A stretch of 64,000 nt of DNA. Source: an uncultured Chloroflexia bacterium (lineage in GTDB: Bacteria > Chloroflexota > Limnocylindria > Limnocylindrales > CSP1-4). Where the stretch lies: the NCBI GenBank assembly GCA_963823925.1, contig CAWGNI010000010.1, positions 279,424 through 343,423 on the forward strand, written 5' to 3'. This document shows, piece by piece, positions 40,317-64,000 of the stretch (position 1 is the first letter of the stretch; each line of letters begins with the position of its first letter). The notes beneath the pieces were generated by a model. The model ran no database searches, had not been told where the DNA came from, and worked only from the letters and a program-made list of their open reading frames with translations. The position numbers were made by a program, and so were the translations under genes.

Positions 40317-41303
40317 ATGCGGATCGGGCGCAACGGGCTGCTGCGTGGGGCGCTGGGGATCGCGGTCAGCGTCGTCGCGCTGTGGATCCTCGTCGGATCG
40401 GTCGACATCGCTGCCGCGATCGACGTCCTCCGGACCGCGTCGCCTGCCTGGATCGGGGTGATGCTCATCTCGGCCACGATCGACGTGGGCGCCCGGGGTG
40501 CCCGCTGGCGCGCGCTGCTCATGCCCATCGCCCGACTCCCATACCGCCGCGTCCTCGGCTACACGTACATCGGGTATCTGGCCAACAACGTCTTGCCGGC
40601 CCGGCTCGGTGAGCTGTACCGGAGCCATGCCCTGGGTGACGGTGAGGGGATCAGCCGGACGACGGTCCTCGGCACGGTCGTGGTGGAGCGGGTCGTGGAC
40701 ACGATCATGGTCGTCGCGATCGCCGCCGTCGCCGTCCTTGTCCTGAGCGTTCGGGGCGTGATGACCAGCGCCGTCCTGCTGGGTCTCGCATTCGTGACGC
40801 TCATGGTGATCGCGCTCGGCCTGGGGATGGCCGCCCACCGCCTGCCGGGTGCGGACCGGGTGGCGGCCATCGTCGCCCGCCGACCGAGGCTGCTCGAGCT
40901 GGGTCGTCGGCTGCGCGAGGGGCTGGCGGTCGCGGGCCGGCCCAGGACGGTCGGCGCCGCACTGGCCTTCAGCACGGTCGCCTGGAGTGCCTCCATCCTG
41001 ACCTTCCTGGCGGGTGGCCAGGCCGTGGGCGTCGAGTTGACCGTCGCCCAGGCCGCCCTGCTGACGAGCGGGGTCGCCCTGGTCACGATCGTGCCATCGG
41101 GTCCCGGCTATGTCGGGACCTTCGAACTCACGGTCGTGGGGATCGCGGACGGGTTCGGGATCCCGAGGGACTCGGCGTTCGCGATGGGCCTGCTCGTTCA
41201 CCTCGTGATCCTTGCGACCACGTCGATCGGTGGCGTGATCGCCCTCATCGCCGTGCGTCGTCGGCACCCGATCCCCGAGGCTCCACCGGTGACGACCGGA
41301 TGA
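40317..41303 (+). CDS. UPF0104 / lysylphosphatidylglycerol-synthase TM-domain (flippase-like) protein
   Basis: RWRALL, GYLANNVLPARLGELYR, VVVERVVD and VPSGPGYVGTFE; multi-TM. Confidence 0.9.
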   Translation: MRIGRNGLLRGALGIAVSVVALWILVGSVDIAAAIDVLRTASPAWIGVMLISATIDVGARGARWRALLMPIARLPYRRVLGYTYIGYLANNVLPARLGELYRSHALGDGEGISRTTVLGTVVVERVVDTIMVVAIAAVAVLVLSVRGVMTSAVLLGLAFVTLMVIALGLGMAAHRLPGADRVAAIVARRPRLLELGRRLREGLAVAGRPRTVGAALAFSTVAWSASILTFLAGGQAVGVELTVAQAALLTSGVALVTIVPSGPGYVGTFELTVVGIADGFGIPRDSAFAMGLLVHLVILATTSIGGVIALIAVRRRHPIPEAPPVTTG

Positions 41304-43293
41304 CGACCGAGTTCCCGCACGTCTTCGAACCGCTCACCCTGCGCCACCGGACCCTGCGCAGCCGGATCAACTTCGGTGCCCACACCGCCAACATGGCCGA
41401 GGACGGCCTGCCCGGCGACCGCCACATCGGCTACTACCGGGAACGCGCTCTCGGCGGCGCCGGGATGATCGTCGTCGAACCCGTGCCGATCCACGCCACC
41501 GGCGTCCTGACCCGCGGCAACTTCCGACACGACGATGACGCCATCATCCCGGCCTTCCGTCGGGTCATCGACGCCTGTCGTGAGGCAAACCCGGATGTCG
41601 TCATGATCCACCAGCTGTACCACGTCGGCCAGCACGGCGATGCCGACAACTCGTTCCGACCGAACTGGTCACCATCCGGCCTGCCGTCCTACCACGACGC
41701 CGACGGCAGCCATGCGATGAGCACGACCGAGATCGATGAGCTGATCGATGGGTTCGTGGCGGCCGCCGGCCGGGCGCAGGCGAGCGGGTTCGACGGGATC
41801 GAGGTCTTCGCCGCCTACCACGCGGTCGTCGACCAGTTCTGGACGCCCTGGTCGAACCGCCGGACCGACCGATGGGGCGCGACCTTCGAGGACCGGATGC
41901 GGTTCTCGAGTGAGATCCTCCGGCGCATCCGCGAGCGCTGCGGCGATGACTTCATCATCGGGCTGGCGGTGAGCGCGGATCCCGGCTCGCCGGCGATGCC
42001 GTCCATCGACGAGCTGGCCTCGATCGTCGCCTGGCACGACGAGCGGCGGTTGATGGACTACGTGACCTGCGGGACCGGTTCCTATTTCGATTTCCACCAG
42101 ATCATGCCGCCATCGCTGTACGACCAACGCCTGGGTGAGCCGTTCGCCGCCGCACTGAAGGGGGTGGTCCGCCATGCCCTCGTCCAGGCCGAGAGCCACA
42201 TCCGGACTCCCGCTGCTGCCGAGGCTGTCCTGGCGGCCGGCCACGCGGACATGGTCAGCATCGTCCGTGGCCAGATCGCAGACCCGCATCTCGTCGCCAA
42301 GGCACGGACCGGTCGCGCCGACGAGGTCAGGCCGTGCATCTCGTGCAACCAGATGTGCTGGGCCCGCCGCTCGCGCGACTACTGGATCTCGTGTCTCGTC
42401 AATCCCTCGGCCGGGCGGGAATGGGAATGGGGCGGCGACCGCTTCGAGCCGGCGCCGGATCCGCGGCGGGTCCTGGTCGTGGGCGGCGGACCCGCCGGCC
42501 TCGAGACGGCCCGGGTTGCCGCTGAGCGGGGCCACAGCGTGACGCTCCACGAACGCGACGCGGTGCTGGGTGGGCAGTTCCGATTGGCGGGTCTTCAACC
42601 ATCGCGCGGCCAGATCACCGACCTGCTGGCCTGGTACGGCCGCCGGCTCGAAGCGCTCGGCGTGGACGTCAACCTCGGTTCGTCGCTTGATGCGAGCGGG
42701 CGTGATCGAGAGCGGGCGCGGACGAGATCGTGGTGGCCACCGGATCACGCCCCCCGCTCAACGGGTTCCAGCGGTCGCTGCCGATGGTGGACCGCCTGCC
42801 GGGCGTCGATGGGCTGGATGTGTGCTCCATCCAGGCGGTGCTCGACGGAAGTGCGGTACCGGGATCCCGTGTACTCGTGCTCGACGACCTCGACGACTGG
42901 CGCGGACTCGGGACCGCGCTCTTCCTCGCCGAGCACGGACGCGCCGTGACGATCATGACCGCCGCCCCGGTCGTCGCGAGGGGCCTCTTCCACAGCGCGG
43001 CCGACGGGCCACTCCGCGCCCGATTCGCGCAAGCCGGCGGCGTGTCAGTCACGTCAGCCTGCCTGATCGAGTGGCGGACCGGCCTGGCCACGATCCGGTC
43101 CACCAGCACGGGGCAGACCCTGGACCTGGCGGCTGACACGCTCGTCATCGCCGAGACCGCCGTCGCCGAGACGGGACTCGCCGAGTCACTGACCGCGCGT
43201 GGGATCCGGTTCCACGAGGTCGGGGACTGCGTCGCGCCACGTCGGGCGAGCCTGGCCATCTACGAAGCCCGTGAACTCGCTCGGCAGCTCTGA
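41300..43293 (+). CDS. Old-yellow-enzyme/TMADH-family FMN+FAD/Fe-S oxidoreductase 1 (frameshifted near 42710)
   Basis: TIM barrel (GFDGIEVFAAYH, DQFWTPWSNRRTDRWG), Fe-S motif CISCNQMC...SCLVNP and Rossmann VVGGGPAGLE. The C-terminus continues in ORF 42730..43293. Confidence 0.9.
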
Positions 43294-43365
43294 GGTTTCC
43301 GGGCGCCGTAAGATGACACCGGGACGCCGCCGGTTGCCGGTGTGCCTCCAGCCGAGGAGATCGCG

Positions 43366-44913
43366 ATGACAGCCCAGGACCTGGAGCAGCCTGCCGCGCG
43401 GCGAGGACGGGCGGCCCGTCAGTCGGAACGTCTCGCCCGGTCGATGGAGACGCTGCCATACCTGACCCGAAAGCTGGCGCCGGTCGAGGTCATCTCGGCC
43501 GAGGGCCTCGAGCTGATCGAATACAACGCCGAAACGCTGCTCGAAGAGGTCGGGATCGAGATCGTCAACTTCCCGGAGGGGGTCGAGATCTTCCGAGGCG
43601 CCGGAGCCGACGTGACCGGTACCCGGGTCCGGTTCCCGCGCGGGATGTGCCGGTCGCTCGTCACTGCGACCGCCCCGGCCGTGTTCACCCAGCGGGCCCG
43701 CAATCCTGGTCGGAGCGTCCGGATCGGGGATCCGCACATGGTCCTGGTGCCGACCTACGGCTCACCGTTCATCCACAACCTCGACGAAGGCCGCCGCTAT
43801 GCGACCATCGAGGACTTCCGGAACTTCGTGAAGCTGACCTACACGAGCCGGACGCTCCATCACGGCGGCGGGACGCTGTGCGAGCCGGTCGACCTGCCGG
43901 TCAACAAGCGTCATCTCGATATGGTCTACAGCCACATCCGCTACTCGGACCGAGCGTTCATGGGTTCGGTGACCCACCCGAGTCGCGCCCAGGATTCGGT
44001 CGATATGGCTCGGATCGTGTTCGGCCAGGAGATCATGGAGCACGACCACGTGATCATGGGACTGGCCAACGCCAACTCCCCGATGTCGTGGGACTTCAAC
44101 ATGCTCGGGTCGGCGAAGGTCTACGCCGAGAACAACCAGATCATGCTCATCACCCCGTTCATCCTCGGCGGGGCGATGGCCCCCGTGACCGTGGCCGCCC
44201 AGGCGACCCAGACCCTCGCGGAGGCGCTTGCCGGGATGGCTTTCTGCCAGATCGTCCGGCCGGGCGCGCCCGTGATCTTCGGATCGTTCGCCTCATCGAT
44301 GTCGATGCAGACCGGCGCACCCACGTTCGGCACGCCCGAGCCACAGCTCGTCCTCTTCGTGCTGGCCGCCCTGGCTCGCCGATTGGGCGTTCCGTTCCGA
44401 AGCGGTGGCAGTTTCACCGCCTCGAAGGTGCCCGATTATCAGGCGGCATACGAAAGCGCCATCAGCTTCCTCACCACGATCCAGGCCGGCGTGAACTTCA
44501 ACCTTCATACCGCCGGCTGGCTGGAGGGCGGCCTCGCCATCGGGTACGAGAAGTTCGTCCTCGATGAGGACCAGGCCTCGATGACGAGCGCGTACATCGC
44601 GGGTGTCGACGTGACCGACAACGGCTACGCTCTGGAAGCCATGCTCGCCGGCGGGCCGGGCCAGCACTTCCTGGGTTCGCCCCACACGCTGGCCAACTTC
44701 GAGCACGCGTTCTGGCGATCCGAACTGTCGAACAACGACAGCTTCGAGCAGTGGGAGCTTGACGGCGGACTCGACGCCGCGCAGCGGGCCAACCGGCGAT
44801 GGAAGAAGCGCCTGGCCGAGTACGAGGCGCCGCCGATCGATCCCGCTCTCGACGAGGCGCTCATCGAGTGGATCGACCGACGCAAGGCGAGCTTCCCGGA
44901 CTCTGACGTCTGA
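43366..44913 (+). CDS. Trimethylamine-methyltransferase (MttB) superfamily protein, pyrrolysine-free, copy 1
   Basis: PVEVISAEGLELIE, RVRFPRG, LCEPVDLP, TPFILGGAMAPVT, TGAPTFGTPE, DYQAAYES and HTAGWLEGGL; no in-frame TAG. GAGGAG SD. Confidence 0.92.
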   Translation: MTAQDLEQPAARRGRAARQSERLARSMETLPYLTRKLAPVEVISAEGLELIEYNAETLLEEVGIEIVNFPEGVEIFRGAGADVTGTRVRFPRGMCRSLVTATAPAVFTQRARNPGRSVRIGDPHMVLVPTYGSPFIHNLDEGRRYATIEDFRNFVKLTYTSRTLHHGGGTLCEPVDLPVNKRHLDMVYSHIRYSDRAFMGSVTHPSRAQDSVDMARIVFGQEIMEHDHVIMGLANANSPMSWDFNMLGSAKVYAENNQIMLITPFILGGAMAPVTVAAQATQTLAEALAGMAFCQIVRPGAPVIFGSFASSMSMQTGAPTFGTPEPQLVLFVLAALARRLGVPFRSGGSFTASKVPDYQAAYESAISFLTTIQAGVNFNLHTAGWLEGGLAIGYEKFVLDEDQASMTSAYIAGVDVTDNGYALEAMLAGGPGQHFLGSPHTLANFEHAFWRSELSNNDSFEQWELDGGLDAAQRANRRWKKRLAEYEAPPIDPALDEALIEWIDRRKASFPDSDV

Positions 44914-44920
44914 GCACGCG

Positions 44921-46973
44921 GTGACCGTCGCAGATCCGCTCCTGCAGCCGTTCCAGCTGCGACACCTCACGCTCCGGAACCGGATCATGAGCACGAGCCA
45001 CGAGCCGGCCTACGCGGAGGACGGGAAGCCCAAGCTGCGGTACCAGCTCTATCACGAGGAGAAGGCCAAGGGCGGGATCGCCCTGTCGATGTTCGGCGGG
45101 TCGACCAACGTCGCCCCGGACTCGCCGGCGGTCTTCGGGCAGCTCTACGCGGGCGATGACGAGATCATCCCGTGGTTCCGCCAGCTCGCCGACCGGATGC
45201 ATGTCCATGGGGCCGCCACGATGATCCAGCTCACCCACATGGGCCGCCGGACCGTCTGGGATGACGGCGACTGGCTGCCGACGATCTCCGCCTCATCGAT
45301 CCGGGAGCCCGCGCATCGCAGCTTCCCGAAGGAGATGGAACCGGCCGACATCCGGCGGGTCGTCACCGCGTTCGCGGAGGCCGCCCGGCGCTGCAAGGAG
45401 GGTGGCCTCGACGGGCTGGAAGTCATCGCCTACGGACACCTGATCGACCAGTTCTGGTCACCCCTGGTCAACCATCGCGGCGACGCCTATGGAGGATCGC
45501 TGGCGAACCGGATGCGCTTCTCGATCGAGGTCCTGGAGGCCATTCGCAGGACCGTCGGGGACGAGTTCATCGTCGGGATCCGGATGACCGGTGGGGAGGA
45601 TGTCGACGGTGGATTGAGCGAAGCGGACGGTCTGGCCATCGCCACGACGCTGGCACGGACGGGCACGATCGACTTCATCAACATCATCAAGGGCTCGATC
45701 GCGACGGACGAGGCCATCTCACACGTGATCCCGGGAATGGGCACGCCGCTCGGGCCTGCGCTCGAGTTCGCCGGACGATTTCGTGAACGGGTCGACCTCC
45801 CGATCTTCCATGCGGCGCGGGTCGCCGACGTCGCGACTGCCCGGCATGCCATCAGTGAGGGCCTGCTGGACATGGTCGGGATGACCCGGGCCCACATGGC
45901 CGACCCGCACATCGTCCGCAAGCTGGAGGCGGGCGAGGCCGATCGGATCCGGCCATGCGTCGGCGCGTCGTACTGCATCAATCGGCTCTACCTCGGCCTG
46001 GACGCGTTGTGCATCCACAATCCGGCAACCGGTCGCGAGGCGACGATCGCCCACGTCACGCCGCCGGCGACGGGCCCGGTGAGGCGGGTGGTCGTCGTCG
46101 GGGCGGGTCCGGCCGGCCTCGAAGCCGCCCGGGTCGCTGCCGAGCGCGGCCACCGGGTGACCCTGCTCGAGGCGTCCGATCGAGCCGGTGGGCAGATCGT
46201 GCTCGCGGCCCGGGCAACGCCACGACGCGGGGACCTGAGTGGGATCGTCGACTGGCTCGTGTCCGAGTGTCGCCACCTCGGTGTGGACCTGCGCCTGGGA
46301 ACCTTCGCCGATCTCGAACTCGATCGCGTCGTTCGAGCCCGACGTCGTCATCATCGCCACGGGCGGCCGTCCACGGATGCCCGCGCTCTCCGAGGGTGAG
46401 GAACTCGTCGTCAGCACCTGGGACATCATCGGCGGTGAAGTCACACCATCCGCGGGTGAGGTCCTCGTGTTCGACGACCACGGCACGGAGGACGCCCTGT
46501 CATGCGTGGAGCGGATGGCGGCCGCCGGGTCATCGGTCGAGATCGTGACGCCGGACCGCCACGTCGGGCACGAAGTGACGGGGACGGCGTATCCGAGCTA
46601 CCTCGCCGCCTTCTACGCCGCGGGCGTCCGGATGACACCGGATCGTCGCCTCCGATCGGTCCGGCGAACCGATGACCGGCGACTTCGACTCGAACTGACG
46701 AGCGACTACGTCGACACCGTCGAGGAACGCGTCGTCGATCAGGTCGTGGTCGAACATGGCACGATCCCCAACGACGAGATCTACAAGGACCTGATCCCAG
46801 GCGCATCCAACGGTGGCGAACTGGATCTCGATCCGTACCTGGCGGGTCGGCCGCAGATGCGGGTCGTCAACGAGGACGGACGCTATCAGCTGTTCAGGAT
46901 CGGCGACGCCGTCGCCAGCCGGAACATCCACGCCGCGATGTACGAGGCCCGCCGGCTGGCCATGGCCCTGTAA
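44921..46973 (+). CDS. OYE-family oxidoreductase 2, StcD/DgcA-like N-methyl-amino-acid demethylase (frameshift near 46316)
   Basis: DPLLQPFQLRHLTLRNRIMSTSHEPAYAEDG, QLTHMGRRT-WDDGDWLP, CVGASYC and FRIGDAVASRNIHAA resemble (recalled) the N-methylproline demethylase StcD and dimethylglycine demethylase DgcA. Confidence 0.82.
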
Positions 46974-49240
46974 ACGGGTCTCCGGCGCGGTTCAGGCCTG
47001 GGCTGGGGATTCGGCGGCCGGTCCTCTCGCTCGATGAGATTGACAAGGTCGGCCGTGTCTCGCTTGCTCGTCTCTGGTTCGTCGGCGGGGTCGACGGGAT
47101 CGGCGAGGGTGGAGTCATCGATCCTCGTGATGGACCCACCCGCTCCGGCTCCACCGAACTCGGCATCGCCGGTCGTCCCGGCCGCGGAGCCGGCCTCGCC
47201 GCCCGGTCGCGCTTGCAGGCGTCGAAGCTCGTCGAGTGGGATGTGGCAGCTCATCATGTGCCCCGGCTCGACCTCGACGAGCGGCGGTTCGGTGACCTCG
47301 CACAGACCGCTGATCGCCCGGTGGCAGCGGGTACTGAAGACACACCCGGACGGCGGGTTGGCCGGACTGGGGATCTCGCCCTCGAGCAGGATCCGGGTCC
47401 GCTGCTCACCGTCGACGTTCGGGACAGCCGACAGGAGCGCCTCGGTGTACGGGTGGTTCGGACCCCGGAAGACGGTCTCGGAATCGCCGACCTCCATGAT
47501 CCGGCCCAGGTACATGACGGCGATCCGGTCGGCCAGGTAGCGGACGACCCCGAGATCGTGCGAGATCAGCAGGTAGCTCGTCTTGCTCTGGATCTGCAGT
47601 TCCGAGAGCAGGTTGAGGATGGCGGCCTGGACCGACACGTCGAGGGCGCTCGTCGGCTCGTCCGCCACGACGATCCGAGGATCCCCGGCGAATGCCCGGG
47701 CGATGGCGACTCGTTGCTTGAGCCCGCCGGAGAGCTGTCGAGGCTTGAGGTCGAGGTGGCGTTGGGTCAGGCGCAGGTCGGCGGCCAGCTTGTCGACCCG
47801 CTGGCTGACGGCCTTGCCCTTCAACCCGGTCAGCTTGGTCACCGACCGCTCCAGGATGTGCCGAGAGGTCCAACCGCGATTGAGGGCCGAGTCCGGGTTC
47901 TGGAAGACCATCTGGATGGAGCGCTTGTCGTCGGTCGGCCGGTCGCCCGAGCGTGGCGCCAGCGGATGCGCATCGAGCTCCACGGTCCCGCCCGCATCCG
48001 GGCTCTCGATCCCGAGGATCGTCCGGGCCATGGTGGACTTGCCCGAGCCGGACTCGCCGACGAGGCCGAGCGTCTCCCCGTCGTACAGGGTCAGGTTGAC
48101 GCCGACGAGCGCCGGGACGTCGGTCCCGCTCTGGTGGAAGGTCTTCGAGACGTTGTCCAGGGAGAGGGCCAGCTCGCCGTGGACGGTGTCGGCGCCGGTG
48201 ACCGCGGGTGGCTCGACCAGCTCATCCAGCCGATCGCGGTGGTGGCACAGCGTCCAGCGGCCCGGGGCGACCTCGACGACGGGCGGCTCCACCGTCCGAC
48301 ACAGCTCGTCGGCGAGCGGGCAGCGGTCGACGAAGACGCAGGTCGGCAAGTCCGTGCCGATCTGGGGCAGGTTGCCGGGGATCGTCGCCAGCTGGCGTTG
48401 CGACTTGCGGATCCCGCGGCGAGGGAGCGATCGCAGCAGGCCGAGCGTGTAGGGATGCTGCGGCGACTCGAAGACCGAGGCCGAGTCACCTTCCTCGACG
48501 ATCCGGCCCGCGTACATCACGCCGACGCGATCGCACAGCGTTCGGATGACGCCAAGGTTGTGGGCGATGAGCAGGACGGCGGCGTTCGTCTCCGCCTGGA
48601 GTTTCCGGACGAGATCGAGGACGCTCGCCTCGACCGTCGCGTCGAGCCCCGTGGTCGGCTCGTCCAGGACCAGCAGTTTCGGGTCCGAGGCGAGGGCGAT
48701 CGCGATCACGATCCGCTGCTGCATCCCACCCGAAAGTTGGTGCGGATACCGCTCGAACACGCCCTCCGGGTCCGCGATCTGCACCCGTTCGAGGGCCTTC
48801 ATCGCGCTGACCCGCGCGTCCTTGCCGTTCTGGCCGAGGATCGTGAACGCCTCCACGACCTGTGGGCCGACCTTGGTCGTCGGGTTGAGGGCGGCGCCCG
48901 GGTCCTGGTAGACCATCGAGGCGTGGTGGATCCGGAAGCGGCGGACCTCGTCGTCGCTCATCTTGGTGATGTCGTCGCCCGACACGAGGATCCGGCCGCC
49001 CGTGATCAGTGCGTTGCGGGGCAGGTATCGGACCGCGGCATAGGCGGTGGTCGATTTCCCACATCCGGACTCGCCGACGAGGCCATACGACTCGCCTGGG
49101 CGCACCTCGAACGAGACCCCACGCAGGACCGGGCGGGGAATGCCGCGGACGACATACGACAGTGACAGGTCGTCGACCTTGAGCGCCGCCGGCGCGTCGT
49201 TCGAGGCCGGCATCGGCGCGCTGACTGCCTCGGCCGTCAT
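46886..49240 (-). CDS. Fused double-domain peptide/nickel ABC ATPase (OppD-OppF type)
   Basis: Two NBDs (GESGCGKST and GESGSGKST; LSGGMQQR and LSGGLKQR) with oligopeptide-ABC Cys tails. The C-terminal end may be earlier than the ORF end because it overlaps the convergent gene. Confidence 0.93.
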   Translation of the reverse strand: MTAEAVSAPMPASNDAPAALKVDDLSLSYVVRGIPRPVLRGVSFEVRPGESYGLVGESGCGKSTTAYAAVRYLPRNALITGGRILVSGDDITKMSDDEVRRFRIHHASMVYQDPGAALNPTTKVGPQVVEAFTILGQNGKDARVSAMKALERVQIADPEGVFERYPHQLSGGMQQRIVIAIALASDPKLLVLDEPTTGLDATVEASVLDLVRKLQAETNAAVLLIAHNLGVIRTLCDRVGVMYAGRIVEEGDSASVFESPQHPYTLGLLRSLPRRGIRKSQRQLATIPGNLPQIGTDLPTCVFVDRCPLADELCRTVEPPVVEVAPGRWTLCHHRDRLDELVEPPAVTGADTVHGELALSLDNVSKTFHQSGTDVPALVGVNLTLYDGETLGLVGESGSGKSTMARTILGIESPDAGGTVELDAHPLAPRSGDRPTDDKRSIQMVFQNPDSALNRGWTSRHILERSVTKLTGLKGKAVSQRVDKLAADLRLTQRHLDLKPRQLSGGLKQRVAIARAFAGDPRIVVADEPTSALDVSVQAAILNLLSELQIQSKTSYLLISHDLGVVRYLADRIAVMYLGRIMEVGDSETVFRGPNHPYTEALLSAVPNVDGEQRTRILLEGEIPSPANPPSGCVFSTRCHRAISGLCEVTEPPLVEVEPGHMMSCHIPLDELRRLQARPGGEAGSAAGTTGDAEFGGAGAGGSITRIDDSTLADPVDPADEPETSKRDTADLVNLIEREDRPPNPQPRPEPRRRPVYRAMASRRASYIAAWMFRLATASPILNS

Positions 49241-50127
49241 TCGCTCATCACCGATTGGAGTGAGTCCGCGATCAGGTTGACCGCGATGACCATGCTGGCG
49301 ATGGCGAGCGCCGGGAACAGGGTCGGCCACCAGACCCCGGAGATCATGTTGTTGTATTCCTGGCTCACCGTGAGCCCCCAGTCCGGGGACGGTGGCTGGA
49401 TGCCCACGCCGAGGAACGACAGCGTGGCGACCGTGAAGATCGCGTACCCGAACCGGACGGTGAGTTCGACGACCGTCGGGCCCAGCACATTCGGGAAGAT
49501 CTCGCGCGACAGGATGAACGGGCCGGACTCCCCGCGCAGCTTGGCCGCGGTCACGTAATCGAGCTGTCGTTCGGACAGGACGGCGGAGCGGACCGTGCGA
49601 GCCACGATCGGGGTGAACAGGATGCCGACGACGCAGATGACGACGATCGGCGACGTCCCGAGGACGACCAGGGTCAGCAGCGCGACGAGGATGACGGGGA
49701 GCGCGAGGAACGCTTCGACCAGCCGGCTGATGAGGTCGTCCACGACGCCGTGGTAGTAGCCCATGATCAGCCCGAGCAGCGTTCCGGCGACGACGCCGAG
49801 GAGGGCGGCCAGCGGGGCGATGATCAGGACGTCTCGGGATCCGACCATGACCCGTGAGAGGACGTCGCGGCCGAGCCGGTCCGTGCCCATCAGGTGCTCC
49901 AGGCTCGGCGGCAACTGGCCGGTATCGAAGTAGTTGAACGGATCGTACGGGGTGATCCGCTCGCCGAGGAGGGCGGTCACGATCCAGCCGACCATGATCA
50001 CGACCCCGATGATGAACGCGGGCCGGTGGAGCAGGACGCGGATCGTCTCGCGGCGTGCCTTGGCTCGCTCCGAGGTCGGTGTGGGTGTCTGGGAGAGGAT
50101 CTCCTCCGGCGTGACCGTGACGTCCAT
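49237..50127 (-). CDS. Peptide/nickel ABC permease (OppC/DppC type)
   Basis: HLMGTDRLGRDVLSR, DYVTAAKLRGES and LSFLGVGIQPPSPDWG. Confidence 0.93.
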   Translation of the reverse strand: MDVTVTPEEILSQTPTPTSERAKARRETIRVLLHRPAFIIGVVIMVGWIVTALLGERITPYDPFNYFDTGQLPPSLEHLMGTDRLGRDVLSRVMVGSRDVLIIAPLAALLGVVAGTLLGLIMGYYHGVVDDLISRLVEAFLALPVILVALLTLVVLGTSPIVVICVVGILFTPIVARTVRSAVLSERQLDYVTAAKLRGESGPFILSREIFPNVLGPTVVELTVRFGYAIFTVATLSFLGVGIQPPSPDWGLTVSQEYNNMISGVWWPTLFPALAIASMVIAVNLIADSLQSVMSE

Positions 50128-51080
50128 CAGCGTTCCGCGTCCAGACGGATCCGTGGGTTCATCCAGGCGATGATCAGGTCAGCGCCGAGCGTCGCCAGCA
50201 TGTAGACGATGCCGATGACGATCGCTCCGGCGGTGAGCATCGGGATGTCCTTTCGCTGGGCGGCGAAGAGCATCGTCTGACCCATCCCGTTGTAGTTGAA
50301 GATCTTCTCGACGGCGATGATCCCGCCGAACAGGTAGCCGATCTGGACGGCGATGACGGCGACCGTCGGGATCAACGCGTTGCGCAGGACGTGGTGGCGC
50401 ATCATCTGGCTCGTCGTGAGCCCCTTCATCGTCGCCGTGCGAGCGTAATCGGACTGCAGCACGTCGATCGTGCCGGCCCGGGTCATCCGGGCGATATAGC
50501 CGAAGTAGACGATGGCCATCGCGGTCGCCGGCATCAGCAGGTATCGGATCTGGGTCAGGACGTCTGCGTCCGGCGGCGGCGTCGCGAGGACCGGGAGCAG
50601 GTGGAAGTGCACCCCGACGACGACGACCAGGATCGTCCCCGTGACGAACTCCGGGATCGATGACGAGGTCACGCCGAGCAACACGATCGCCCGGTCCGCG
50701 GGTCTGTCCCTTCGTCTCGCGGCAAACAGACCCGCGATGATGGCGAGCGGGATGGTGATGAGCAGTGCCAGTCCGGCGAGCTTCGCCGAACGGCCGATCG
50801 CATCCACCAGCTGGGGCAGGACGGGCTGGCTCGTGATGTACGAGTCGCCGAAGTCGAGGGTGACGATCCCGACCATCGCATCGACGTACTGGACCAGGAT
50901 CGGACGGTTGGTGCCGAGGCGCTCGTTGAGCGCATCGACACTTTCCTGTGGCGCGAACGGGCCGAGGATCGTCCGCCCGATGTCGTTGGGCAGGACATTC
51001 GCGATGATGAACACGATCGTGGCCAGCAGCCACAACGTGACGAGCGACAGGAGCAGTCGGCGCCCGACGAACCGGCCCAT
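50127..51080 (-). CDS. Peptide/nickel ABC permease (OppB/DppB type)
   Basis: LDFGDSY, SSIPEFV, RMTRAGTIDVLQSDYARTA and HVLRNALIP. Confidence 0.93.
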   Translation of the reverse strand: MGRFVGRRLLLSLVTLWLLATIVFIIANVLPNDIGRTILGPFAPQESVDALNERLGTNRPILVQYVDAMVGIVTLDFGDSYITSQPVLPQLVDAIGRSAKLAGLALLITIPLAIIAGLFAARRRDRPADRAIVLLGVTSSSIPEFVTGTILVVVVGVHFHLLPVLATPPPDADVLTQIRYLLMPATAMAIVYFGYIARMTRAGTIDVLQSDYARTATMKGLTTSQMMRHHVLRNALIPTVAVIAVQIGYLFGGIIAVEKIFNYNGMGQTMLFAAQRKDIPMLTAGAIVIGIVYMLATLGADLIIAWMNPRIRLDAER

Positions 51081-51112
51081 CGCCCTAGGTCACCCGATAC
51101 GGAGTCACGCCG

Positions 51113-51148: not shown

Positions 51149-51154
51149 GGGGCC

Positions 51155-53035: not shown

Positions 53036-54145
53036 ATGCGAATCACGGCCATCCGGATCGACCGGGCCACCCTGCCGCTGTCGCCGCCGTTCCCGGCGGC
53101 ATGGGATCCGATCCCTCGTGAGTCCTTCGCGGCCACGATCGTCCGAGTCGAGACCGATGCGGGGATCGTCGGGATCGGGTCGGGCGACACGATGGATGGC
53201 TTCGGGGCGTTCAGCCACCTGTTCCTCGGCGAGGACCCGTTGGCCATCGCCCGTCATGTCCGGGTGCTCGAGACGATCGACTTCCATGGCAGTCGCTACT
53301 GGCCGCTCGAGGTCGCCCTGTGGGACATCATCGGGCAGGTCGCCGGGTTGCCGGTGGCGACCTTGTTCGGCGGCACGCTCGACGGGATCCCGGCCTACGC
53401 ATCGTGCGGGATGTTGCTCCCGGCGGCGGCCCGCGCCGAAGCAGCGCTGCGCTTCCGGGAGGAAGGCTTCCGAGCCCTCAAGATCCGGGTCGACCCGGAA
53501 CATCTCGAGGATGGTCTCGCGGCGGTCACCGCGACGCGGGCGGCAGTCGGCGACTCGATGGCGATCATGGTCGATCTCAACCAGGGCTGGCGGATGGCCG
53601 GTGACGTGCGCCGCTCGCTGGACCCCGTCGCGGCGCGCGAGGTCGCGGCCCGGCTCGCCGACGATGGCGTGCTCTGGGTGGAGGAACCGCTGGCGGGGAC
53701 CGACCTGCGTGGCCTGGCTGCCCTGCGCGCATCGGGTCCCGGCATCCGGGTGGCGGGCGGCGAGATGACCCGGACGTTCACCGAGCTCCTGGCTGCCCTC
53801 GACGCCGACGCGTTCGACGTCCACCAGCCCGACGTCGTCCTGGCCGCCGGGATGTCGCGCGGCCGGACCATCGCCGAGCTTGCCATGGCGCGCAACCGCT
53901 GGTACTCACCGCACACCTGGACGAACGGGATCGGGCTGCTGGCCAACCTGCACGTCGCTGCCGGCGTCGGTGGTGGCCCGTTCATCGAGTACCCGTACGA
54001 CCCGCCCGGCTGGACCGCGGAGCGACGCGACTTCATGCTCGCCGAACCGATCCGCCCGGGCCCCGATGGGATCCTGCGCGTCCCGACCGCGCCAGGGCTC
54101 GGGATCGTCCTCGACGAGGCGGCGATCACCAGGTATGCGGGATGA
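53036..54145 (+). CDS. Mandelate racemase/muconate-lactonising (enolase superfamily) enzyme
   Basis: VRVETDAGIVGIG, EVALWDIIG, ALKIRV, MVDLNQG (D), WVEEP (E), AGGE (E), HQPD and YSPHTW. Confidence 0.92.
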   Translation: MRITAIRIDRATLPLSPPFPAAWDPIPRESFAATIVRVETDAGIVGIGSGDTMDGFGAFSHLFLGEDPLAIARHVRVLETIDFHGSRYWPLEVALWDIIGQVAGLPVATLFGGTLDGIPAYASCGMLLPAAARAEAALRFREEGFRALKIRVDPEHLEDGLAAVTATRAAVGDSMAIMVDLNQGWRMAGDVRRSLDPVAAREVAARLADDGVLWVEEPLAGTDLRGLAALRASGPGIRVAGGEMTRTFTELLAALDADAFDVHQPDVVLAAGMSRGRTIAELAMARNRWYSPHTWTNGIGLLANLHVAAGVGGGPFIEYPYDPPGWTAERRDFMLAEPIRPGPDGILRVPTAPGLGIVLDEAAITRYAG

Positions 54146-55656
54146 CCTCGGCACCGACGAACCCGACCGTGGACGACTGGATCGCCCGGGCGGCCGAGGT
54201 GGCGCCGCGGACCGAGCTGTTCATCGATGGGCGGTTCGTCCCGGCCGCGTCGGGCCGGACGTTCGACGACGTCGCCGGGCGGGACGGGCAACGGATCGCC
54301 ACGGTGGCCGAGGCGTCGGTCGAGGACGTCGACCTGGCCGTTCAGGCGGCCCGGCGTTCGTTCGACGACCGGCGATGGAGTGACCAGCCGCCCGCGGCGC
54401 GAAAGCGGGTCCTCCTGCGCCTGGCGGAACTCGTTCGCGAACACACGGACGAGCTCGCGCTGCTCGAGTCCCTCGACGTCGGCAAACCCATCCGCGACAC
54501 CCTGGCCGTGGACGTCCCGGGTGCCGCCACGACCTTCCAGTGGTACGCAGAGACGATCGACAAGACCTACGGCGAGGTCGGACCGACCGGTCCCGATGCG
54601 CTCTCGCTGGTGACCCGCGAGCCGATCGGTGTGGTCGCCGCGATCGTGCCCTGGAACTACCCGCTGATCATCACCGCCTGGAAGCTCGGGGCGGCGCTCG
54701 CGACGGGCAACTCGGTGGTGCTCAAACCCGCCAGCCAATCGCCGCTGACCGCGCTCCGTCTGGCGGAGCTCGCCGCCGCCGCCGGCCTGCCCGACGGCGT
54801 GCTCAACGTCGTCGCCGGTCCTGGGGCGGTCGTCGGCGACGCCCTGGCTCGACATCCAGGGGTCGACAAGATCGCGTTCACCGGGTCGACGACGGTCGGC
54901 AAGTCGCTCCTTCGGGCAGTCGGCGAGTCCGACGTCAAGGCCATCTCGCTGGAACTCGGCGGCAAGAGTCCGCAGGTGGTCCTCGCCGACGTCGGCGACC
55001 TCGACACGGCGGCTTCGGCGATCGGCTGGGGGATCTTCTACAACAGCGGCCAGACCTGCAACGCCGGCTCCCGGCTGGTCGTCCACCGCTCGGTGCGCCA
55101 GGAACTCGTCGACCGGATCGCGGCCCTCGGTCGGACGCTGGCGCCCGGGGACCCGCTCGATCCCCGGACCCGGCTCGGCTCGATCGTGGACGGCCGCCAG
55201 CTCGAGAAGATCCTCGGATACGTGGCCATCGGCCGGACGGAGGGAGCCGCGGTCCTTGCCGGCGGCGAGCGCGTGCGAGAGGAAAGCGGCGGCTACTTCG
55301 TCGGTCCGACCATCCTCGACGGCGTCAGCAATTCGATGCGGGTGGCCCGCGAGGAGATCTTCGGACCCGTCCTGACCGTGACCGAGTTCGAGGACGAGGA
55401 CGAAGCGATCGCGATCGCCAACGACACGCCGTACGGTCTCGCCGCCGGCGTCTGGACCCGCGACGTCAACCGTGCCCATCGCCTGTCGCGTCGGATCCGG
55501 GCCGGGGTCGTGTGGGTCAACACCTTCGACACTGCCGACATCACCGTCCCGTTCGGTGGCTTCAAGCAATCGGGCTTCGGGCGCGACAAGGGACTCCACG
55601 CCCTCGAGGGGTACAGCCAGCTCAAGACGACCTGGTTCGACCTGTCCGGAGGCTGA
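54142..55656 (+). CDS. Aldehyde dehydrogenase (PuuC-like)
   Basis: IVPWNYP, LKPASQS, FTGSTTVG, LELGGKSP, YNSGQTCNAGSR, EEIFGPV and GGFKQSG. Confidence 0.93.
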   Translation: MTSAPTNPTVDDWIARAAEVAPRTELFIDGRFVPAASGRTFDDVAGRDGQRIATVAEASVEDVDLAVQAARRSFDDRRWSDQPPAARKRVLLRLAELVREHTDELALLESLDVGKPIRDTLAVDVPGAATTFQWYAETIDKTYGEVGPTGPDALSLVTREPIGVVAAIVPWNYPLIITAWKLGAALATGNSVVLKPASQSPLTALRLAELAAAAGLPDGVLNVVAGPGAVVGDALARHPGVDKIAFTGSTTVGKSLLRAVGESDVKAISLELGGKSPQVVLADVGDLDTAASAIGWGIFYNSGQTCNAGSRLVVHRSVRQELVDRIAALGRTLAPGDPLDPRTRLGSIVDGRQLEKILGYVAIGRTEGAAVLAGGERVREESGGYFVGPTILDGVSNSMRVAREEIFGPVLTVTEFEDEDEAIAIANDTPYGLAAGVWTRDVNRAHRLSRRIRAGVVWVNTFDTADITVPFGGFKQSGFGRDKGLHALEGYSQLKTTWFDLSGG

Positions 55657-55757: not shown

Positions 55758-57323
55758 GTGACGGACATGGACACGGACGCGGGCCAGGGTCTTCGACGTC
55801 GCCGTTCAGGTGGACGCGAGGGTCACGCTCGGAGCGCCCTGCCCCAGCAGCGACCGTGGGCCCAGCCACGGATGCGCTATCCCCCGACCGAGCTGATCTC
55901 GGCCGATGAACTCGAGTCGATCCACCTTGGCTCGCTGCGGGTGCTGTCCGAGATCGGGATGGACTTCCTCGACCCAGAGGCCCGCGAGATCCTGCGCGGC
56001 GCCGGTGCCACCGTCGAATCGGACTCCCAGCGCGTCCGGTTCCCGCCCGCGATGGTCGACGAGATCATCAGGACCGCGCCGTCGACGTTCACGCTGCATG
56101 CCCGCAATCCGGCCCATGACGTTCGCCTCGGCGGCGACTGGATCGCGTTCGGGACCGTCGGCAGTCCGCCGAACGTGGCCGACCTGGACCGGGGACGTCG
56201 GATCGGCAACCGGGCGGACTACCAGAACCTGCTGCGGCTCTCCCAGATGCTCAACGCCGTCCACTTCATGGCGGGATACCCGGTCGAGCCGGTCGACCTG
56301 CACCACAGCGTCCGGCACCTCCATGCGACCTACGACGCCCTGACCCTGATGGACAAGGTGGTCCACGCCTACAGCCTCGGCCGCCAGCGCAATATCGACT
56401 GTCTCGAGATGGTCCGGATCGCCCGCGGCATCGACATGGACACGATCGACCGCGAGCCATCCGTGATGACCGTCGTCAACTCGAGTTCGCCGCTGCGCCT
56501 GGACACTCCGATGCTCCAGGGGATGATCGAGTTCGCGTCCCACAACCAGGTGGTCTGCATCACGCCGTTCACGCTCGCCGGCGCGATGGCCCCGGTGACC
56601 CTGGCCGGCGCACTCGCCGAGCAGAACGCCGAAGCCCTGGCCGGGATCGTCATGACCCAGGCCGTCCGACCCGGCGCGCCGGTGATCTACGGCGGCTTCA
56701 CGTCGAATGTCGACATGCAATCGGGCGCGCCAGCGTTCGGGACGCCGGAGTACATGCGGACGGCGATGATCGGCGGCCAGCTCGCCCGTCGGTACGGTGT
56801 CCCGTACCGCTCCTCGAACGTGTGTGCCGCGAATGCGCTCGATGCCCAGGCGGCGTACGAATCGGTCTTCTCCCTGTGGGGCGCGATCATGGGCGGGGTC
56901 AACCTGCTGATGCACGGCGCCGGCTGGATGGAAGGCGGACTCCACGCCAGCTACGAGAAGATGATCCTGGACGCGGAACTCCTCGAGATGGTCGAGGCCT
57001 TCCTCGAGCCGGTGATCGTCGACGCTGACACCCTCGGCTTCTCGGCGATGGAGGAGGTCGGCCCGGGGGGCCACTTCTTCGGGGCCGCGCACACCCAGGA
57101 GCGGTATCGGACGGCCTTCCACAAGCCGATGCTGAGCGACTGGCGGAACTACGAGACGTGGCAGGAGGCCGGCTCGCCCGAGCTGCCGTCCAAGGCCAAT
57201 CGGATCTGGAAGGAGCTGCTCGCGGCGTACGAACCGCCACCGATCGATCCGGCCGTCGCCGAGGAACTCGAGGCGTTCGTAGCTCGACGTGTCGCCGAGG
57301 GCGGCGTCCCGACGGACTACTGA
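55758..57323 (+). CDS. MttB-superfamily methyltransferase, pyrrolysine-free, copy 2
   Basis: LISADELESIH, RVRFP, PVEPVDL, NSSSPLRLD, TPFTLAGAMAPVT, SGAPAFGTPE, DAQAAYES and HGAGWMEGGL; no in-frame TAG. AGGAG SD before GTG 55758. Confidence 0.92.
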   Translation: MTDMDTDAGQGLRRRRSGGREGHARSALPQQRPWAQPRMRYPPTELISADELESIHLGSLRVLSEIGMDFLDPEAREILRGAGATVESDSQRVRFPPAMVDEIIRTAPSTFTLHARNPAHDVRLGGDWIAFGTVGSPPNVADLDRGRRIGNRADYQNLLRLSQMLNAVHFMAGYPVEPVDLHHSVRHLHATYDALTLMDKVVHAYSLGRQRNIDCLEMVRIARGIDMDTIDREPSVMTVVNSSSPLRLDTPMLQGMIEFASHNQVVCITPFTLAGAMAPVTLAGALAEQNAEALAGIVMTQAVRPGAPVIYGGFTSNVDMQSGAPAFGTPEYMRTAMIGGQLARRYGVPYRSSNVCAANALDAQAAYESVFSLWGAIMGGVNLLMHGAGWMEGGLHASYEKMILDAELLEMVEAFLEPVIVDADTLGFSAMEEVGPGGHFFGAAHTQERYRTAFHKPMLSDWRNYETWQEAGSPELPSKANRIWKELLAAYEPPPIDPAVAEELEAFVARRVAEGGVPTDY

Positions 57324-57362
57324 ACCCAGCCGGCCCCGCCGGCTCGAGCGAAGGGGAGCACC

Positions 57363-62056: not shown

Positions 62057-62426
62057 ACGGCTCGTCGGTCTCCGCGTCGTGGCGGATCCCGCGGCCATCG
62101 ACGCGGCCCGCTGGCGTGGTGACGAGGTCACCGTCCTGCGGTTCGCCCCGGACGATGCGTTCGCCCTGGGGGCGTCGGGCGTCGAGGTCGACGATCCACT
62201 GGCCATCGTCGAGCACGAGGTCGGGTTCGCAGGCGCCCGGCTCTCCTCGACGGAGTTCGCCGAGATCATGGCCCACGTCGAGTGGCCGCTCCCCGCGGGC
62301 CGTCCGGCACTCGCGCAGGGCGCGATCGCCGGGGTCCCGGCGAAACTCTGGCTGGCGAACGACGGCGAGGCGATGCTCCTGGCGAACCTGGCCTACGCCG
62401 AGGAACTCGAGGGGCGGCTGCGATGA
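62043..62426 (+). CDS. Short sarcosine-oxidase-gamma-like protein
   Basis: LRFAPDDAF and AQGAIAGVPAKLW...LL...YAEEL resemble SoxG; overlaps both neighbours. Confidence 0.55.
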   Translation: MRALERLVGLRVVADPAAIDAARWRGDEVTVLRFAPDDAFALGASGVEVDDPLAIVEHEVGFAGARLSSTEFAEIMAHVEWPLPAGRPALAQGAIAGVPAKLWLANDGEAMLLANLAYAEELEGRLR

Positions 62427-63631
62427 GCGCGTTCGTCGACGACCTGCCGGCGATCCGCTGGCACGAGCCGCGGTCGAGCTATGACGTGGTCATCGTCGGC
62501 GGCGGCGGTCATGGCCTGGCGACCGCCTATTACCTCGCCACGCGCCACGGGATCACGAACGTCGCGGTCGTCGAAGCGGACTACATCGCCTCCGGCAACA
62601 CGGGCCGGAACACGACCATCATCCGGGCGAACTACGGGATCCCGGAGGCGGTCCGCTTCTACCAGCACTCGCTCGAGATGTATCAGACACTCGAGGATGA
62701 GGTCGGCGCCGCGATCCTCCACCAGACCAAGGGCATCTTCTGGGTCGCCCATACCGAGACGACCATGCGCACGGAGCGGGCGCGCTGCCTCGTCAACACG
62801 GCCTGTGGCGCGAAGACATCGATGGTCAGTCCGATCGAACTCAAGGAGCTGATCCCGGAGATCGACCTGACCGGCGGTGGTCGGTATCCGGTCCTCGGTG
62901 CGTCGCATCATGTCGAGGGCGCGACCGCGCGGCACGACCGGGTCGCCTGGGCCTACGCTGCCGGGGCATCGCAGCGGGGGGTGCATGTCATCCAGCATCG
63001 ACCGGTCACCGGGCTCATCCACGACGGCGACCGGATCGTCGGGGTCGACACCGAGGCTGGTCCGATCGCGGCCGGCCTGGTCCTGTCCGCCGTGGGTGGC
63101 CGGGTCACCCGAATGGCCGCCCATGCCGGGGTCCGTCTGCCGGTCCGGACCCATCCCCTCCACGCCTTCGTGACGAACGACTACGCCCAGGGGTTCGGAT
63201 CGATCCTCGCCAGCACGGAGCTGGCCTGCTATGTCTCGCAGACGGAGCGCGGCCAGATGCTCATCGGGGCCGAGTTCGACTCGCAGCCGTCGTATTCGCG
63301 CCAGTCGTCGTTCGCCGCACTGCGCAGCTATTCGTACAAGATCACCCGGCTCCTGCCATTCCTGCGGGACATGCGCATCCTGCGCTCGTGGGCGGGCAGT
63401 TGCGACATCTCAGCGGACTTCTCGCCGATCATGGGTGCGACCGGTGTCGATGGGTTCCTGATCACGACCGGATGGGGGACCTGGGGGTTCAAGGCGATCC
63501 CGGCCGGTGGGGAAGGGATGGCCGGCCTCATCGCCACGGGCCGGCCGCCGGACCTCATCGCCCCGTTCAGTCTCGACCGCTTCCGACGCGACCACGTGCT
63601 CGCCGACCAGGGCTCGGCGGGGACCCGCTGA
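62423..63631 (+). CDS. soxB: Sarcosine oxidase beta subunit family
   Basis: YDVVIVGGGGHGLATAYYLA, GNTGRNTTIIRANY, TARHDRVAWAYA (FMN-linked His) and GWGTWGFKAIP. Confidence 0.9.
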   Translation: MSAFVDDLPAIRWHEPRSSYDVVIVGGGGHGLATAYYLATRHGITNVAVVEADYIASGNTGRNTTIIRANYGIPEAVRFYQHSLEMYQTLEDEVGAAILHQTKGIFWVAHTETTMRTERARCLVNTACGAKTSMVSPIELKELIPEIDLTGGGRYPVLGASHHVEGATARHDRVAWAYAAGASQRGVHVIQHRPVTGLIHDGDRIVGVDTEAGPIAAGLVLSAVGGRVTRMAAHAGVRLPVRTHPLHAFVTNDYAQGFGSILASTELACYVSQTERGQMLIGAEFDSQPSYSRQSSFAALRSYSYKITRLLPFLRDMRILRSWAGSCDISADFSPIMGATGVDGFLITTGWGTWGFKAIPAGGEGMAGLIATGRPPDLIAPFSLDRFRRDHVLADQGSAGTR

Positions 63632-63876
63632 TGCTCTGGCTCCCCTGTCCGCACTGCGGCCGTCGGCCGATCGACGAGTTCACCTTCGGTGGCGAGCGCC
63701 GAGCCGTGCCGGACTGGATCACGGATCCCGACGAGCGGGACTTCGATGAGGTCTGGAACTTCGAGAACCCGGACACCGAGACCACCGAGCGCTGGTTCCA
63801 CGCCTTCGGTTGCCGGCGCTGGCTGACCGTCCGGCGCGATACCACGAGCGACACCGTCCTGGAGGTCACGACGTGA
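63631..63876 (+). CDS. soxD: Sarcosine oxidase delta subunit
   Basis: CPHCGRRPIDEF and WFHAFGCRRW (Cys3His zinc site), RDT. Confidence 0.92.
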   Translation: MLWLPCPHCGRRPIDEFTFGGERRAVPDWITDPDERDFDEVWNFENPDTETTERWFHAFGCRRWLTVRRDTTSDTVLEVTT

Positions 63877-64000
63877 CCGGTCTGGCCGACCGGCGGTTCG
63901 AGATGGTCCTGCGCAACCGCGTGCTGTTCGGGGTCGGTGCCGTCACCCGGTTGCCCGAGGTGATCATCGCGGCCGGTGGCTCGCGCGTCTTTCTCGTCAC
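63873..64000 (+). CDS. 5' part of a probable iron-containing alcohol dehydrogenase (partial)
   Basis: The GTG overlaps the soxD stop. RVLFGVGAVTRLPEVI...GSRVFLVT is the typical Fe-ADH N-terminus. Confidence 0.7.
   Translation, partial: MTGLADRRFEMVLRNRVLFGVGAVTRLPEVIIAAGGSRVFLV

Follow-up and report, generated by a model that had tools for sequence, protein, structure and literature searches.

A gene cluster in a soil Limnocylindrales genome with two probable satellite modules for cobalamin-dependent demethylation of betaines

The gene cluster at positions 41300-65054 of the DNA analysed here probably consists of two substrate-specific satellite modules of an MtgBCD-type methylamine demethylation system in an aerobic soil member of the Limnocylindrales. 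From sequence comparison and gene context, we put the probability of this reading at about 0.6. The DNA is a stretch of 64,000 nucleotides (the window, C10:279424-343423) from a metagenome-assembled genome (MAG) of 2.94 Mb in 11 contigs, which is 84% complete. Among its close relatives are soil and freshwater MAGs of Candidatus Limnocylindrales (Chloroflexota). Each module includes one gene of the MttB family (PF06253), called MttB1 in module A and MttB2 in module B. The cluster is real and most likely represents a known type of pathway in a lineage-specific form. Gene content was obtained with Pfam and NCBIfam scans, and all functional assignments are inferred from homology and gene context. 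Positions (Table 1) are window coordinates unless they carry a contig prefix (C10, C2 or C4).

According to the proposed scheme, each MttB paralogue would demethylate a quaternary amine once and load the methyl group onto Co(I)-MtgC, the corrinoid protein. MtgD would hand the methyl group to tetrahydrofolate, an MTHFR-like enzyme would oxidise it, and RACo together with DUF1638 would re-reduce inactivated cobalamin. In module A, a Dpp-type ATP-binding cassette (ABC) system would bring in a betaine, MttB1 would take off the first methyl group, and two old yellow enzyme (OYE)-type flavoproteins, the HpbA/StcD-like OYE2 and OYE1, would take off the next oxidatively. In module B, MttB2, a protein resembling dimethylglycine dehydrogenase (DMGDH-like) and a sarcosine oxidase-like (Sox-like) complex would act in succession on a trimethylammonium carboxylate and remove its three methyl groups. 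For the substrate of module B, the most economical guess and close to an even bet is glycine betaine, possibly formed from choline by an iron-type alcohol dehydrogenase (Fe-ADH) and an aldehyde dehydrogenase (ALDH). For module A, pyrrolidinium betaines, for example proline betaine or hydroxyproline betaine, are the likeliest substrates, proposed more tentatively by analogy with rhizobial loci.

The shared components are encoded by a hub on the same contig, ~47 kb upstream of the cluster and outside the window (at window positions of about -13069 to -5162). The genome includes a corrinoid protein, a methyl-corrinoid:tetrahydrofolate methyltransferase and an activase, the set that defines an MtgBCD-type system. 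Six PF06253 genes are scattered through the genome and the sole small corrinoid protein found is the MtgC of the hub. The hub MttB (g9) is 67% identical to the Sinorhizobium meliloti protein of structure 4YYC, for which a literature search found nothing, and 45% identical to Desulfitobacterium hafniense MtgB. Its orthologues (68-86% identical) occur in Chloroflexota, Actinomycetota, Acidobacteriota and Pseudomonadota, almost always beside MtgC, DUF1638, MtgD and RACo and often also beside DMGDH and Sox genes. These similarities mark g9 as the probable MtgB-like member of the MttB set of this genome.

MttB1 and MttB2 are full-length PF06253 proteins with no internal stop codon, which places them in the non-pyrrolysine branch of the family. 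MttB1 is 67% and MttB2 41% identical to g9. The residues that bind glycine betaine in D. hafniense MtgB are Y97, R312, H348 and F356 (PMC13080624). Both g9 and MttB1 keep the first three, with F356 replaced by G as in the S. meliloti 4YYC protein; MttB2 keeps R312 and H348 and lacks Y97. Since the Arg and His are conserved, MttB1 and MttB2 are expected to act on quaternary amines with an acidic group. The paralogue on C4 keeps only the Arg, and those on C7 and C2 keep none of the four residues. In a maximum-likelihood tree, the MttB1 orthologues form one clade (SH-aLRT 100) on a long stem, nested in the aerobic MtgB-like clade, so that MttB1 can be regarded as having arisen from the MtgB-like hub gene by a lineage-specific duplication. 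A separate deep clade unites MttB2 with the C4 paralogue and with homologues from Alphaproteobacteria.

Two of the other paralogues have neighbours of their own. At C4:23089-28901, the paralogue most similar to MttB2 (54% identical) precedes genes that encode an Ndh-like flavoprotein, an oxidoreductase of the GMC family and an MFS transporter; this locus may be another satellite module. At C2:40427-43385, the very divergent MttB-like gene without any of the four residues is followed immediately by a gene for the alpha subunit of a Rieske oxygenase that resembles GbcA (215 bits with the GbcA model, below its cut-off).

Module A comprises OYE1, MttB1 and OYE2 and is convergent with the operon of the Dpp-type ABC system. 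In module B, from the enolase-superfamily gene through Fe-ADH, neighbouring genes overlap by 4 nucleotides or are separated by gaps of no more than 95 nucleotides, for which reason we treat it as one operon. For example, the start of SoxB overlaps orf127 in ATGA, and the stop and start codons of SoxB and SoxD overlap. The cluster ends with the end of Fe-ADH, ~1 kb past the window, and is followed by genes for an F420/LLM oxidoreductase and by mod genes. An extension of the cluster into positions 1-39500 was rejected: that region carries Suf, MoeZ, CysM, PurE, Paa and thiolase genes, among others. The cluster is kept in related Limnocylindrales MAGs, with all its genes contiguous both here and in one of these, G001. 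Module B is conserved in five relatives (G001 and G003-G006) and is present in every sampled genome of the same genus, while the position of module A varies between relatives. In G004 and G005 module B lies directly after the GT2-LPG synthase gene without module A, which is found elsewhere in the genome; the two modules are therefore separable. ALDH is absent from module B in G005 and G006.

An earlier note on this DNA had listed ten genes here, including a permuted Sox set and an Fe-ADH, and the Pfam and NCBIfam scans recover all ten in the order given. It had also called the region an island and read the whole 23 kb as one linear pathway for a single betaine, with all enzymes working on one skeleton. 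The first term has to be given up. GC content across the cluster (0.65-0.72) is the same as in the rest of the window, which rules out a compositional island, and no integrase or tRNA gene was noted at the cluster; by these signs it is a gene cluster and does not qualify as a horizontally acquired genomic island. The single pathway has in its favour, besides the contiguity of the genes here and in G001, the divergent orientation of the solute-binding protein (SBP) gene and the enolase-ALDH-MttB2 operon, and a Mesorhizobium cluster that unites an MttB2 homologue with a homologue of this SBP. It is nevertheless improbable. The modules lie apart in G004 and G005; OYE2, OYE1 and ALDH are each absent from some relatives; MttB1 and MttB2 belong to deeply separate clades; and five demethylating enzymes are more than the three methyl groups of one trimethylammonium compound call for. 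Nor is the route self-contained in the window, with the corrinoid protein, the tetrahydrofolate methyltransferase, RACo, DUF1638 and MTHFR all situated in the upstream hub.

Comparative evidence for module B also comes from outside the Chloroflexota. Homologues of MttB2 (49-60% identical) occur on replicons of Mesorhizobium, Shinella, Sinorhizobium and Rhodobacterales. In S. meliloti a full-length DMGDH-like protein, 44% identical to the one here, is encoded beside the MttB2 homologue, in a locus that also carries LysR, creatinase-like, glycine-betaine-type ABC transporter, enolase-superfamily (2PGW) and Ldh_2 genes. The homologue in Parasedimentitalea marina is accompanied by SoxBDAG, LysR, a gene for a creatinase-like protein and a DMGDH-like gene whose product is 42% identical over its full length to that of the window. 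The pair of MttB2 and DMGDH-like genes, with or without Sox, thus recurs across phyla, and this would fit a three-step demethylation of a trimethylammonium carboxylate. The DMGDH-like protein here carries all four domains of the DMGDH/SARDH family in its 817 residues, a length within the ~800-830 usual for the family, and is predicted to be an FAD- and folate-dependent N-demethylase.

All four TSOX subunits are present in divergent form, in the order alpha-gamma-beta-delta. The SoxA-like protein scores 281 bits with TIGR01372 (cut-off 1164) and matches only model positions 524-995, the C-terminal half. It keeps the Fer2_4 and BFD motifs and the folate domain without most of the Rossmann domain. 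A frameshift artefact was considered as the source of the short SoxA and rejected: the full-length form, of 740-750 residues, is conserved at 74-77% in G001, G004 and G005. The SoxB-like protein scores 398 bits with TIGR01373 (cut-off 529). The product of orf127 has no Pfam or NCBIfam match and is conserved at 50-70% in relatives. Its AlphaFold model (pLDDT 90) has as best Foldseek matches the TSOX gamma chains 2GAG_C and 1VRQ_C (probability 1.00, TMq 0.60-0.67) and, judged by this modelled fold, orf127 is the short gamma subunit of the sarcosine oxidase-like complex. Only one SoxB and one SoxD occur in the genome; sarcosine derived from glycine betaine must therefore pass through this complex.

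In the sequence of the enolase-superfamily enzyme, a K-x-R motif on strand 2 and a His on strand 7 paired with an Asp on strand 6 suggest a member of the MR subgroup. Its best match in the PDB is 4GGB (106 bits); the best matches are MR-subgroup proteins and include galactonate or talarate dehydratases, and NCBIfam gives only weak dehydratase matches. Of 201 sampled genomes of the class, 16 carry an orthologue; they belong to 2 of 43 genera and include every sampled genome of the same genus, and the gene is linked to MttB2 in five relatives. Thousands of homologues occur in soil metagenomes, the best 120 of them all at least 80% identical. The homologue search returned these near-identical soil sequences without a functional name, and no characterised close relative was found. 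The S. meliloti 2PGW and Phyllobacterium MR/MLE genes, which occur in comparable clusters, are only 23-25% identical to it. As for 2PGW itself, which is annotated as a putative muconate cycloisomerase, its position in the S. meliloti plasmid pB locus (L110, locus coordinates 8171-22403) suggests by analogy a role in betaine catabolism.

Neither of the two dehydrogenases of module B can be assigned to the GbsB/GbsA choline oxidation type by model score, although GbsB and BADH models are their top or near-top matches. The ALDH scores best with PuuC (607 bits, cut-off 850) and reaches 516 bits with BADH (cut-off 669), and the top match of Fe-ADH is the GbsB-type choline dehydrogenase (250 bits, cut-off 550). 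From these similarities the pair could feed choline into the module B route.

Both OYE genes of module A are interrupted in this assembly. Relative to intact orthologues, OYE1 has two single-nucleotide insertions (at ~42698 and ~42710), which split it into open reading frames (ORFs) at 41300-42949 and 42730-43293, and OYE2 has one at ~46323. If these frameshifts were real, the cluster would be decaying and module A would be non-functional in this organism. What speaks for decay is that three single-nucleotide insertions fall in a common alignment region of two paralogues, which is unlikely by chance. To assess the background, 165 genes intact in the short-read relative G001 (JBBRXB01, contig 2) were compared with this genome. 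They include 26 that are split between frames in this assembly, with 28 junctions in ~180 kb of coding sequence (~1 break per 6 kb), compared with a frame change in 4 of 157 genes in the reverse control. The orthologues of OYE1 and OYE2 are intact in L001, L003, L005 and L016, with OYE1 in a single frame there, and GC3 is coding-like on both sides of the breaks. Given that 26 of 165 genes are broken in this assembly, the OYE frameshifts are probably sequencing or assembly errors, and decay of module A is very improbable. Read support is needed before any apparent pseudogene of this genome is accepted.

Some details of these breaks deserve mention. The breaks in OYE1 and OYE2 (paralogues 35% identical) share one alignment region just before the DxVVxATG motif, and both OYE1 insertions sit inside a repeated GAGCGGGCG motif. 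The shared region remains a coincidence without explanation. Errors linked to GATC methylation were rejected as a cause: GATC occurs near 8 of the 28 junctions compared with 8.1 expected at random. Programmed +1 frameshifting or quadruplet decoding was also rejected, there being no in-frame CGGN or shared motif at the OYE breaks, and it is further weakened by the background of 26 of 165 against 4 of 157. Further frame breaks occur in the window, for example at 154-1384, 18107-19542, 24642-25440 and 31740-32326. In addition, the ORFs of OYE2 and the ABC ATPase, which are convergent, share 88 nucleotides at their 3' ends (46886-46973), and the last ~50-100 residues of the 814 residue ATPase ORF cannot be aligned with relatives; this extended end may be another indel artefact.

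By its full-length homology and its two-domain architecture (FMN plus FAD/NAD), OYE2 belongs to the HpbA/StcD/DgcA family, from which its activity is predicted. Its intact orthologue in L001 is 52.7% identical over 99% of its length to a Paracoccus marcusii protein that PGAP names HpbA and labels N-methyl-L-proline N-demethylase, and whose gene adjoins a betaine/proline/choline ABC transporter. HpbA has been validated genetically in Paracoccus denitrificans (PMC3950512). OYE1, a two-domain FMN/[4Fe-4S]/FAD flavoprotein, belongs to a separate orthologous group; it is 33% identical to the P. marcusii HpbA and 56-57% identical to orthologues on rhizobial plasmids. In Rhizobium sp. ACO-34A, 11 kb separate the orthologues of OYE1 (56%) and OYE2 (52%), and the genes around them encode proline/glycine-betaine ABC transporters, a pyrroline-5-carboxylate (P5C) reductase and a set of DHDPS-family, ALDH and FAD-oxidoreductase proteins. 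Such a set is typical of hydroxyproline catabolism. It might be argued that the OYE proteins are NAD(P)H-dependent ene-reductases of the FadH/NCR kind that act on an unsaturated acid and lie near MttB by coincidence: their top PDB sequence matches are NCR (6QKG) and FadH (1PS9), and their best NCBIfam model is a FadH/OYE family. The genetically validated Paracoccus HpbA, however, shows the same NCBIfam profile and is 53% identical to OYE2, and OYE orthologues reside within rhizobial betaine and proline clusters. We see only a slight chance that the ene-reductase explanation is correct.

The demethylase reading of module A also draws on its importer. Orthologues of MttB1 (81-91% identical) are found only in Limnocylindrales loci and always adjoin the ABC system. 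Of 16 MttB1 loci, 12 also carry OYE1; OYE2 occurs in 4 of the 15 in which sequence is available on the downstream side of MttB1. Homologues of the complete ABC system were found on just seven rhizobial plasmids (SBP 37-39%, permeases 50-56% and ATPase 54-56% identical). In Mesorhizobium mediterraneum the homologous system is divergent from genes for a Rieske oxygenase resembling GbcA (376 bits, short of the equivalog cut-off) and for a VanB-type reductase, with an OYE2 homologue 7 kb away. The Phyllobacterium system has two MR/MLE genes and a gene for an Ldh_2 oxidoreductase on its flanks, and in Mesorhizobium sp. WSM1497 the homologous SBP gene comes after genes for an MttB2 homologue, an Ldh_2 protein and a Rieske protein. 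The SBP homologues of Mesorhizobium near a GbcA-like Rieske or an MttB2-like gene are 36-39% identical to the one here. By analogy with these loci, we infer that this ABC subfamily may carry an N-methylated amine. Because the Mesorhizobium ABC homologue adjoins a GbcA-like Rieske demethylase, MttB1 would fill the role of that enzyme in Limnocylindrales. This contig lacks a Rieske domain, and BCCT and OpuAC domains are absent from the whole 84%-complete genome. Family-5 (Dpp/Opp-type) transporters are not known as carriers of quaternary amines.

A more specific proposal can be formulated from both modules. MttB1, as a fast-evolving duplicate of MtgB, would replace the GbcA/Stc2 Rieske enzyme in company with a family-5 importer and so provide an O2-independent, B12-based entry for pyrrolidinium betaines of plant origin, for example stachydrine or betonicine, while MttB2 and the MR-type enolase enzyme would serve a second betaine by way of the Fe-S Sox-like complex. 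In this full form we consider it rather unlikely.

Several results weigh against two satellite modules with the functions and substrates proposed. Some 47 kb of unrelated genes separate the hub from the modules. The hub MttB is a better candidate for glycine betaine than MttB2, which lacks the Y97 of the glycine-betaine-specific MtgB. The enolase enzyme is not an orthologue of HpbD, which is absent from its 60 best PDB matches; an assignment as HpbD was rejected on this account. Fe-ADH and ALDH score far under all NCBIfam equivalog cut-offs. In module A, both OYE genes are out of frame in this assembly, their PDB scores are higher for NCR and FadH than for TMADH or histamine dehydrogenase, and, as HpbA, StcD and DgcA are close relatives, 53% identity leaves the substrate of OYE2 unfixed. 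A quite different role, in which the MttB paralogues chiefly supply methionine synthesis through the shared MtgC (a split-MetH role), can draw on the dual function of MtgC and MtgD in Ruegeria pomeroyi, but deserves hardly any weight given that the MttB genes share operons with a transporter and with catabolic enzymes (DMGDH-like, TSOX-like complex, ALDH and ADH).

Table 1. Genes of the cluster and of the corrinoid hub; positions without prefix refer to the window.
Feature	Position	Strand	Domains and remarks
OYE1	41300-43293	+	Oxidored_FMN (PF00724) + FAD/NAD Rossmann domain
MttB1	43366-44913	+	PF06253, 695 bits
OYE2	44921-46973	+	HpbA/StcD-like two-domain flavoprotein (Pfam)
ATPase of Dpp/Opp-type ABC importer, fused double nucleotide-binding domain	46886-49330	-	2x ABC_tran + 2x oligo_HPY
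Two ABC permeases	49237-50127 and 50127-51080	-	BPD_transp_1
SBP_bac_5 solute-binding protein, candidate betaine binder	51155-52858	-	PF00496
Enolase-superfamily enzyme	53036-54145	+	MR_MLE_C + MR_MLE_N; first gene of module B
NAD(P)-dependent ALDH	54142-55656	+	PF00171, 572 bits
MttB2	55767-57323	+	PF06253, 669 bits
DMGDH-like, 817 aa	57363-59816	+	DAO, FAO_M, GCV_T, GCV_T_C
SoxA-like (alpha), 747 aa	59813-62056	+	Fer2_4, BFD, truncated Rossmann domain
orf127 (gamma), 127 aa	62043-62426	+	Fold match only
SoxB-like (beta)	62423-63631	+	DAO domain
SoxD (delta)	63631-63876	+	PF04267, 73.7 bits
Fe-ADH	63873-65054 (end at C10:344477)	+	PF00465 + ADH_Fe_C; only the 5' end is inside the window
Hub, gene order	C10:266354-274261		IclR, MtgC, DUF1638, MtgD (Pterin_bind), RACo, MttB g9, MTHFR-like (Pfam)
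MtgC, small corrinoid protein	C10:267195-267896		B12-binding_2 + B12-binding
MtgD, Pterin_bind methyltransferase	C10:268699-269775		
RACo-type reductive activase	C10:269788-271854		
BADH-like ALDH adjoining the hub	C10:263442-264980		606 bits, cut-off 669

Elsewhere in the window and unlinked to the cluster, a gene at 23217-24626 (minus strand) encodes a glutamine-synthetase-family protein of 469 residues with Gln-synt_C only. A gamma-glutamyl-amine synthetase like PuuA or GmaS is one possible identity.

In soil, betaines rank among the main osmolytes of plants and microbes, and soil metagenomes are very rich in Limnocylindrales-like sequences of this cluster. If two modules of this kind do operate here, a widespread uncultured soil lineage degrades several betaines by vitamin B12 chemistry rather than by oxygenases, and the cobalamin supply of soil would be tied to osmolyte turnover. 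The 2025 marine MtgBCD finding would also be extended to Chloroflexota. Candidates for orphan enzymes emerge as well: MttB1 and MttB2 with their specificities, a betaine-binding protein of family 5, an enolase enzyme of the MR type that would act in betaine metabolism, and a TSOX in minimal Fe-S form.

The earlier note had seen here the best candidate in the window for an undescribed pathway. The principle has been published for marine Alphaproteobacteria: aerobic cobalamin-dependent demethylation of glycine betaine by an MttB-family enzyme, followed by folate-linked demethylation of dimethylglycine (DMG) and sarcosine by flavoenzymes, was shown genetically in R. pomeroyi (Mausz et al. 2025, PMC12478193). 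The same study noted up to seven PF06253 paralogues, presumed to serve other methylated compounds, and MttB and MtgB genes in Limnocylindria were noted in a MAG survey (PMC11264602). The order of events that the note had proposed, with MttB acting first and flavoenzymes later, fits both the gene context and the published aerobic MtgBCD model (PMC12478193). Its StcD/DgcA-like call for OYE2 stands through the full-length identity to HpbA, and its remark that Rieske, BCCT and OpuA-type genes are missing agrees with the domain scans of contig and genome.

The R. pomeroyi MtgBCD system (with RamA/RACo, DUF1638 and MetF2) has the same set of hub components and multiple PF06253 paralogues, with DMGDH and Sox genes close to an MttB gene. 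The host here differs in being a soil Chloroflexota, with satellite MttB genes ~47 kb from the hub. Its importer is of the Dpp type instead of BCCT or OpuA, its Sox alpha subunit is short and Fe-S-bearing in a set ordered alpha-gamma-beta-delta, enolase, ALDH and Fe-ADH genes are added, and OYE-type demethylases flank MttB1.

The HpbD/HpbB1C1/HpbA system of P. denitrificans and Rhodobacter sphaeroides (PMC3950512), which degrades proline betaine and hydroxyproline betaine, and Stc2/StcD of S. meliloti share with this cluster an HpbA/StcD-like flavoprotein, an enolase-superfamily gene in a betaine cluster, an ABC importer and a two-step demethylation. By analogy, HpbD (4-hydroxyproline betaine 2-epimerase / proline betaine racemase) can serve as the precedent for an enolase-family enzyme in betaine catabolism, although the enzyme here is not its orthologue. 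The first demethylation here would depend on a corrinoid MttB system and not on a Rieske monooxygenase, and the SBP is of family 5, not of the OpuAC type.

Like MtgB, MtpB, MtcB, MtyB and MthB of D. hafniense and Eubacterium limosum (PMC13080624, PMC8604678), the MttB proteins are PF06253 TIM barrels without pyrrolysine, with conserved carboxylate-binding Arg/His, and one corrinoid protein serves several paralogues. Unlike them, they are only 37-45% identical to MtgB, occur in an aerobic context, and their products would be demethylated further and not excreted. As in SoxBDAG of Corynebacterium sp. U-96 (1VRQ) and Stenotrophomonas (2GAG), the Sox-like complex has four subunit types and an alpha subunit with a folate (GCV_T) domain. 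Its alpha subunit, however, has 747 residues compared with ~965-1000, with ferredoxin and BFD cysteine motifs and the Rossmann domain mostly absent; gamma has 127 compared with ~190, and the gene order is permuted.

Against this background, five features appear to be new: the satellite MttB modules ~47 kb from a single hub; the lack of any BCCT or OpuAC transporter in the genome; the pairing of an MtgB duplicate with HpbA/StcD-like flavoproteins and a family-5 importer, in a setting that in rhizobia includes a Rieske demethylase; an MttB2 tightly coupled with an enolase enzyme of the MR type and with Fe-ADH; and the minimal, Fe-S-bearing and permuted TSOX.

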